Part shown: piece after piece, positions 32,036-33,283 of the stretch | Numbering within the stretch: position 1 is the first letter of the stretch | Layout: the number at the start of each line of letters is the position of its first letter | Origin: Saccostrea cucullata | Lineage: Eukaryota | Assembly (NCBI RefSeq): GCF_032062105.1 | Contig: NW_026928818.1 | Span: 62,001 to 126,000 of the forward strand | DNA: 64,000 bases | Direction of reading: 5' to 3' | Translations under genes and position numbers: made by a program | Notes under the pieces: model-generated | The model's database searches: none | What the model was told of the DNA's origin: nothing | The model's input: the letters and a program-made list of their open reading frames with translations, nothing else

Positions 32036-33283
32036 ATGCCACCCGTACGCACACGTACATCGACTAGAGGGAGGAAGGAGTATGCAAGGAGTTTTGTGAC
32101 ACCGTCCAGGGGCAGGGGGAGAAGACGGAGGCGAGAGGGCGAGATGTCGCAGACCACTCGACCACATGGCGATCTGAACGTTGACGACAGCCAAACACCA
32201 ACGGGGGCCATCATTAATGTGGCCAGTCAGAGTCATAGTCAGAGTCAGAGTCAGCTTGACGTTCAGCCCCTTGAGGAAGCTACTAATCAGGAAATTGTGG
32301 GGGAGATTCAGGGATCTGGCGCCGGACGCAGACGCTTGGCCAACTCCAATACCCGTCCAGATTTGGCAGATCTAACCACAGAATCCAGAAAGTTAATTTA
32401 CAATTCCCTAGCTCCTAGCACACACAAGACTTACCAAACTGCTCTCGAAAAATTCCAAAATTTTGTCAAAATTCATTATAATCAATTAGTTGTAACTTGG
32501 CCCATAACAACACCTGTTTTACTTAATTTTATAGCTTATTTGTCAATCCATGAGCATGCCGCTAGCACTGTACAATCGTACGTAAGTGCAGTTGCCTTTT
32601 TTCATAAAATTCGAGGGCTCCAGGACCCATCAAACAATTTTCTTGTCAGAAAAGCATTACAGGGTCTAAAGCGCACTAGGGGTACAACACCGGACTTGCG
32701 TTGTCCTATTACTTTTTCAATCTTGCGCCACATCATAGCTTCACTACCAACAATTTGTCCACCATATGAAGTTAAGCTGTTTACATGTGCTTTTAGTTTG
32801 GCATATACTGCATTACTCAGAGTAGGGGAATGCACGGCCACAGGTTGCAACACTAACTCACATTTTATTCAGTTTCAAGGAATCGAAGTTAAGCATCGCA
32901 CCAATGAAGTTCGAATAACAATCCCACATTCAAAATCTCAACAAACAAGCGGACAAACTCTCATTCTTCAGGGTCAACCACATTCTCCGATATGTCCAGT
33001 TAGATGCATTAGGGAATTTTTAAAAGTCAGACCAACCACACCTGCATCTCATATTTTCTTAGTTCACAGTGACACGGCACCTCTTACTAGGTTTCAGTTT
33101 AATGCAGTATTACAAAAAGCTCTCAAAATTTCGGGAACACAAGGATACTTTGGCACACACAGTTTCAGGATTGGGCGGGCTACCGATATGGCACTACAGG
33201 GGGTTTCTTACGATGCCATTCAGAAAGCAGGCAGGTGGAGATCACCTGTTTTTCTAAAGTATATTAGGATTCAAAATCAGTAG
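32036..33283 (+). CDS. Tyrosine recombinase (DIRS/Ngaro type) with an Arg-rich gag-like N-terminus
   Basis: LAPSTHKTY core-binding domain; catalytic LLRVGE, HSKS, HSFRIG, GRWRS, KYIR. Confidence 0.92.
   Translation: MPPVRTRTSTRGRKEYARSFVTPSRGRGRRRRREGEMSQTTRPHGDLNVDDSQTPTGAIINVASQSHSQSQSQLDVQPLEEATNQEIVGEIQGSGAGRRRLANSNTRPDLADLTTESRKLIYNSLAPSTHKTYQTALEKFQNFVKIHYNQLVVTWPITTPVLLNFIAYLSIHEHAASTVQSYVSAVAFFHKIRGLQDPSNNFLVRKALQGLKRTRGTTPDLRCPITFSILRHIIASLPTICPPYEVKLFTCAFSLAYTALLRVGECTATGCNTNSHFIQFQGIEVKHRTNEVRITIPHSKSQQTSGQTLILQGQPHSPICPVRCIREFLKVRPTTPASHIFLVHSDTAPLTRFQFNAVLQKALKISGTQGYFGTHSFRIGRATDMALQGVSYDAIQKAGRWRSPVFLKYIRIQNQ

Follow-up and report, generated by a model that had tools for sequence, protein, structure and literature searches.

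In retroviruses and LTR elements, a 5' leader is spliced past gag-pol to downstream ORFs, as in the env mRNA, and such spliced RNAs sometimes return to DNA as processed copies. Ngaro-like elements, which belong to the order DIRS, are defined in the available part of one study by split direct repeats, an SGNH hydrolase and the absence of a methyltransferase (PMC9210276). For the expression of their overlapping, often start-less tyrosine recombinase (YR) ORF, the proposal on record is that of Poulter and Butler (2015), according to which the YR is probably translated via programmed frameshifts in the overlap (as quoted in PMC13003380). Ngaro type 2b copies of Cafeteria burkhardae carry deletions of about 2 kb in ORF1, and splicing is nowhere mentioned in the main text of that report (PMC8547959).

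Here, we describe a related element in a window of 64,000 nt from Saccostrea cucullata (all positions are counted from the first letter of this window; Table 1). On the basis of its architecture, the element is a non-autonomous Ngaro-like retrotransposon. Self-comparison gave the order A1, YR ORF, SGNH ORF, B1-A2, a 296-nt spacer and B2; the YR has its catalytic residues, and the comparison of 31000-36300 returned direct repeats only, with no inverted terminal repeats of the DIRS1-like type. No methyltransferase follows the RNase H (RH), whose ORF stops 26 codons past the junction described below (in the 63 relatives from the best 80 loci, 7-73 residues separate the AD..SR motif from the stop), and this absence sets the element apart from DIRS1- and PAT-like elements. 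The repeats, the YR-SGNH order and an RH tail overlapping the YR start are shared with animal Ngaro elements such as Xenopus DIRS-53_XT (available part of PMC9210276). In published Ngaro elements, B1, A2 and B2 are adjacent, whereas here the spacer separates A2 from B2. A loose contig end before B in sequencing run X5 resembles the end of this spacer, so that the spacer is a feature of the family. TATA-like words occur in it at 34820 and 34830. Full-length relatives have the organization gag-RT/RH-YR-SGNH; of the gag and RT/RH ORFs, the window copy has only the gag leader and the RH tail, and it is thus a derivative, non-autonomous member. A1 and A2 are 98.4% identical over 191 nt (one substitution and a 2-nt indel), and B1 and B2 differ at only one of 622 nt, which indicates a young insertion.

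Table 1. Positions of the element, its parts and the interrupted host ORF in the window.
Feature	Position	Strand	Remarks
Left half of MULE transposase ORF (insertion host)	31123..31805	+	PF10551 E=1e-8, PF00872
Split direct repeat A1	31802..31990	+	starts with TTAA (31802-31805)
Putative gag leader exon, coding part	32036..32297	+	87 codons + 1 nt; gag N-terminus homology
Putative exon-exon junction, lost GT-AG intron (gag core + RT/RNase H)	32297..32298	+	phase 1; one shared G
Remnant RNase H C-terminal tail (WGRFRDLAP...QI, stop)	32298..32375	+	+1 frame; match to L001 RT/RH tail
Putative tyrosine recombinase exon, residues 88-415	32298..33283	+	PF00589; no Met before residue 385
Predicted second acceptor, phase 1	33336..33360	+	branch-like CACTAAC at 33336; TAG ending at 33360
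SGNH/GDSL hydrolase ORF, stop to stop	33342..33938	+	PF00657 E=3e-6, PF13472
Split direct repeat B1	33995..34616	+	TTAA at end, common to A2 start; AATAAA at 34483
Split direct repeat A2	34613..34803	+	TTAA at start, shared with B1 end
A2-B2 spacer, 296 nt	34804..35099	+	
Split direct repeat B2	35100..35721	+	TTAA at end (35718-35721)
Right half of interrupted MULE ORF	35722..36004	+	open frame; follows 31805 in empty-site contigs; without Pfam match

The ATG at 32036 opens a 415-aa ORF (32036-33283, forward strand) that matches the tyrosine recombinase family PF00589 at residues 251-403 and gives SAM-like matches at residues 124-191. The catalytic residues R262, K300, H375, R378 and W401 are invariant in an alignment of 44 sequences, and Y409 is near-invariant. 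Met codons occur only at residues 1, 37 and 385, so that the YR part has no start of its own, and the ATG of this ORF is the sole one from A1 to 32040. The original prediction, made from the letters of the window, had taken the ORF for a fusion of a gag start and a YR that retained a fossil RNase H tail. Its description of the first ~90 aa as Arg-rich holds for residues 1-36 (12 R, 1 K) but not for residues 37-87, which contain 1 R, 7 D/E and 20 S/T/Q. The assignment of the N-terminus to gag is supported by the protein P0150: the two N-termini are 41% identical over 59 aa (pairwise E=9e-9), and residues 12-205 of P0150 score E=3e-38 against a profile built from 18 gag ORFs. Residues 1-90 of the window ORF, used as the query of a homology search, matched 0 of 60 candidates. 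The overlapping frame at 32304-32375 reads RFRDLAPDADAWPTPIPVQIWQI followed by a stop, as had been noticed, and its identification as an RNase H tail is also correct, as the match goes beyond chance: 18 of 25 residues are identical to the C-terminal end of the RT/RNase H ORF at the related locus L001 (RVT_1, E=3e-12). The RNase H-derived part starts, however, at 32298 (WGRFRDLAP...) rather than at 32304. Among the best 80 of at least 528 confirmed related loci, 65 (63 after duplicate removal) have an AD-x-[LIVMA]-SR-type motif upstream of the YR and an RNase H-type tail overlapping the YR frame; the other 15 loci, which are themselves short or degenerate or carry variant motifs, were left out. 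Loss of the gag core and RT/RH from the window was likewise upheld, since tblastn with five RT ORFs and a gag core found nothing but the RH tail at E<0.1. Scans of viral contigs found no relatives.

We aligned contigs of four of the 24 listed runs (X1, X5, X12 and X19) to 31650-34600; X1 is DNA and X5 is RNA by guess, and X19 is RNA on record (a small share). X1 contig 2 matches 31961-32297 and then continues with GTGAGT for 1574 nt more. In X1 contig 3, the match begins at 32297 and is preceded by 729 letters foreign to this place, the last of which form a pyrimidine-rich CAG. This breakpoint is shared by X5 contigs 26 and 28. Behind the X1 donor, the gag frame stays open and reads G-E-S-D-I-L-I-P-P-T by hand translation (G-E-S-F-N-I-P in the gag of P0150). 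Before the X1 acceptor, hand translation gives S-V-A-D-S-I-S-R-S-Q, which continues into W-G-R-F-R-D-L-A-P, so that the acceptor site lies within the RNase H motif AD-x-x-SR-x-Q. Given that the family sequence exits at 32297 with GTGAGT and re-enters from ...CAG, the loss corresponds to an exact GT-AG intron, and excision of GT...AG from the family contigs reproduces the window sequence exactly, with one G shared. The missing segment measures at least 1574 nt, or about 2.3 kb if X1 contigs 2 and 3 do not overlap; the intron of this family was read from 30 letters at each loose end, and RT is not among these letters. The original prediction had proposed splice sites or microhomology as signs to look for at the junction. 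Splice sites are present, whereas microhomology is limited to the one shared G. The copy thus lacks exactly the stretch bounded by splice signals in its family, and on this sequence evidence we consider it likely that it is a DNA copy of the spliced recombinase mRNA of that family.

No RNA contig across 32297/32298 was found in X19 or X5; X19 is almost without cover there and so does not speak against a junction, and X5 (RNA by guess) shows only the unspliced form at 32297. In X12, the distance-to-end values at 32203-32326 imply a contig that spans the junction in spliced form and continues for 29 letters, to about 32326. It shows three differences from the window, and was not counted because 29 letters lie below the 31-letter threshold; it is possibly a second intron-less copy. 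No such copy was seen in the 14 of the 15 loci without the motif that were read; these loci are short or degenerate, or their tails are variant.

Next, we considered the conservation of the acceptor in the 63 distant relatives from the best 80 loci. The glutamine codon at SR+2 is CAG in 42 of 44 cases, compared with 399 of 878 Q codons upstream in the same ORFs (p=4e-12), and after clustering to 50 groups the ratio is 37/38. Q codons further along the same overlap are divided into 34 CAG and 24 CAA (34/58). The glutamine itself may be conserved for protein reasons, but these do not explain the choice of CAG over CAA. A YAG is found within SR+1..+4 in 60 of the 63 loci and is lacking there in three, whereas 6.5% of background windows hold CAG. 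Where SR+2 has no YAG, one tends to occur at SR+4 (16 of 20 loci, vs 5 of 43 with YAG at SR+2; p=2e-7). In addition, the Ser of the motif is never encoded by AGY (0/63, vs 478/1722 in the background) and the Arg is CGY in 48/63, so that a pyrimidine tract without a competing AG is maintained. At locus L039, the SR+2 codon is TAG, by which the RNase H is broken and the AG kept; this copy is degenerate, and the observation is therefore weak.

The donor was analyzed in gag. Of 26 candidates, 19 showed a Met with basic residues behind it; removal of one near-duplicate left 18. Donors were scored by a weight matrix, and in these 18 ORFs the best phase-1 site upstream of the gag core reached 4.46 on average, vs 1.68+-0.52 in synonymous shuffles, none of which (0/300) reached the observed value. 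The other five phase/region classes in the 18 ORFs showed no donor enrichment, and simply counting GTRAG words in each phase gave no significant excess (28, vs 21 expected; p=0.07). Phase 1 is the phase required by the YR acceptor. No fixed acceptor was found before RT (26, 12 and 19 of 40 by phase).

These results suggest that animal Ngaro-like elements make the YR by splicing, not by ribosomal frameshift. The spliced-RNA origin of the window copy could also be accepted while the splice itself is taken as minor or regulatory, the YR being made mainly by a -1 frameshift or from an internal start in the RT/RH overlap. The published frameshift proposal (quoted in PMC13003380) points in this direction, as do the YR frame, which is -1 relative to RH at nearly all of the best 80 loci, and the Met within the first 32 codons of 22 of the 63 YR frames (the other 41 have none); moreover, our splice reading is built on sequence. 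However, canonical slippery heptamers occur in only 2 of the 63 overlaps, the acceptor is conserved at synonymous sites and shifts to SR+4, the donors are matched to it in phase, and the same phase recurs before SGNH, which has no RT overlap. We therefore regard a mainly frameshifted or internally started YR as unlikely, although it is the best of the alternatives.

The SGNH ORF of the window has no Met upstream of block I (33378). The motif filter kept 19 SGNH ORFs, that of the window and those of 18 loci. Among them, a phase-1 YAG at most 45 nt before block I was present in 19/19 (a raw count, with no shuffle control), and phase-0 and phase-2 YAGs in 6/19 each; 9/19 lack an upstream Met. This pattern points to a phase-1 acceptor, at 33360 in the window, by which the SGNH ORF would be reached. 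Given that the donor has been consumed at 32297, the window copy is likely to be unable to make the SGNH product.

We also compared annotated proteins of other animals. In RefSeq models of Ostrea edulis, two Saccostrea species, Lytechinus pictus and Diadema antillarum, a leader that is basic and of low complexity is fused to a YR, with the join at a constant distance from the first conserved helix, and models of Mytilus have such a leader fused to SGNH. In protein-level comparison, O. edulis, S. echinata and M. trossulus each have isoforms of one locus that part at the leader-YR or leader-SGNH boundary, so that a splice junction is implied at this point; those of O. edulis differ by 3 residues more or fewer there. 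The same leader-YR layout in annotated oyster and sea-urchin proteins speaks against the claim that a deletion had given the YR a new start codon. Four short RefSeq isoforms (P0164, P0166, P0171 and P0224) consist of the same basic leader and only 8-18 residues before a stop, which suggests an extra acceptor downstream in those elements.

Based on these observations, we propose that the full-length element uses a donor within the low-complexity sequence at the beginning of gag, which would be spliced in phase 1 to the acceptor in the AD-x-x-SR-x-Q codons. Such a splice would remove the gag core and RT/RH and give the start-less YR the gag ATG and a basic leader, as a fusion that would then be translated from that ATG; the frame between gag and YR in the window is the outcome expected of it. 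The same donor would probably also join the start-less SGNH ORF via the second phase-1 acceptor. Given that the spliced RNA would retain all four terminal repeats, it could be reverse transcribed in trans by the proteins of a full-length element and integrated, presumably by the YR at a TTAA common to element and target. The reverse transcriptase of DIRS-1 acts in trans, and full trans-mobilisation of a truncated construct could not be observed, as far as the available part of that study extends (PMC7192593). We thus suggest, with moderate confidence, that animal Ngaro elements have a retrovirus-like splicing programme with one phase-1 leader donor and acceptors for YR and SGNH, and that their spliced mRNAs are mobilised as an intron-less, YR-encoding class of non-autonomous elements.

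The same splice could have acted by another route, in which a full-length element was inserted and later lost its intron in place by recombination with spliced cDNA. The exact junction would be identical, and it cannot separate this route from a new insertion. However, two events would be needed in the short time allowed by the nearly identical repeats (1/622), and among the listed contig pieces of the four runs no element, full-length or not, was seen at the flank. Loss in place appears unlikely.

The event of the original prediction, a plain DNA deletion that happened to bring YR into the frame of gag (1 in 3), now seems very improbable. Internally deleted Ngaro copies are known from Cafeteria (main text of PMC8547959), and the junction shows one base of microhomology. 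However, its ends are a canonical donor and a canonical acceptor; GTRAG together with YAG is expected at random at about 1 in 8,000 (two registers, even base use), and the 3' end coincides with the acceptor position conserved in 60 of the 63 relatives from the best 80 loci. The family contigs largely refute a chance deletion. A native YR start at this N-terminus, in a Crypton-like DNA transposon that never had an RT and from which nothing was lost, is scarcely credible and is rejected: an intact ORF with an ATG of its own speaks for it, but the family contigs hold extra sequence at the exact junction point, the leader matches gag, and the overlapping RNase H tail, split direct repeats and SGNH are Ngaro traits. 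The original prediction was right to the extent that the N-terminus of the ORF is no native YR start and that the tail peptide recurs in an RT-bearing relative.

The splicing that we propose for the Ngaro family resembles that of retroviral sub-genomic RNAs in that a leader is joined across the gag-pol region to a downstream ORF. Unlike in env splicing, the product would be the integration enzyme and the acceptor lies inside RNase H codons; furthermore, the gag start would remain fused to the N-terminus of the product, and the ends of the copy are complete and of the YR type. The Cafeteria type 2b elements are likewise Ngaro copies missing about 2 kb of the 5' coding region; there, ORF1 is lost and the losses are called deletions (main text of PMC8547959), whereas the loss in the window copy extends to RT/RH and is bounded by splice sites.

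A gag-YR splice is unmentioned in the available parts of PMC4157794, PMC6681497, PMC3783388, PMC9341512, PMC2632668, PMC7192593, PMC12477816, PMC13465315, PMC8547959, PMC9210276 and bioRxiv 10.1101/2022.06.16.496473, and a search of titles and abstract beginnings, whose coverage excludes key reviews, found no paper on splicing of a Ngaro recombinase. As far as the literature examined goes, the type of element is known; what is new is the proposed way of expressing the YR, together with the proposed mobilisation of a spliced isoform. The window copy would hold a spliced product as DNA, exact to the base at both ends, and the conserved acceptor leads to a prediction that can be checked in existing RNA-seq data of any mollusc or echinoderm. 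If this reading is true, then YR and SGNH proteins bear a basic gag-derived leader that annotations have missed, and host splicing sets the balance of genome RNA, YR and SGNH. Internally deleted copies would then be a record of the transcript isoforms of the element, and processed copies would be found among the published Ngaro 'deletion variants' and the apparent YR-only elements.

With regard to the target site, contigs of X12 and X19 pass after 31805 directly into the letters of the right flank, as expected of an empty site; the MULE is repeated, and these contigs may be other MULE copies. TTAA is present at both ends of the element and at the B1/A2 junction, and the empty site has one TTAA. 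This fits a YR crossover core common to element and target as well as a 4-bp duplication, both of which are compatible with the sequence. Head to head with the MULE transposase frame, and partly overlapping it, lies an ORF with a NADAR domain (30596-31252, reverse strand; PF08719, E=2e-20), which is perhaps cargo of the MULE element. Further along the window, an ORF with a SAP/Ish1-like domain at 39500-40111 (forward strand) possibly belongs to another transposon, and an exon of a TrmO-like host gene (PF01980) is located at 27055-27708 (reverse strand). A 90-bp tandem array occupies 36032-36718, and units of 149 bp and of 1.2-1.4 kb form a nested array over 45600-50800.
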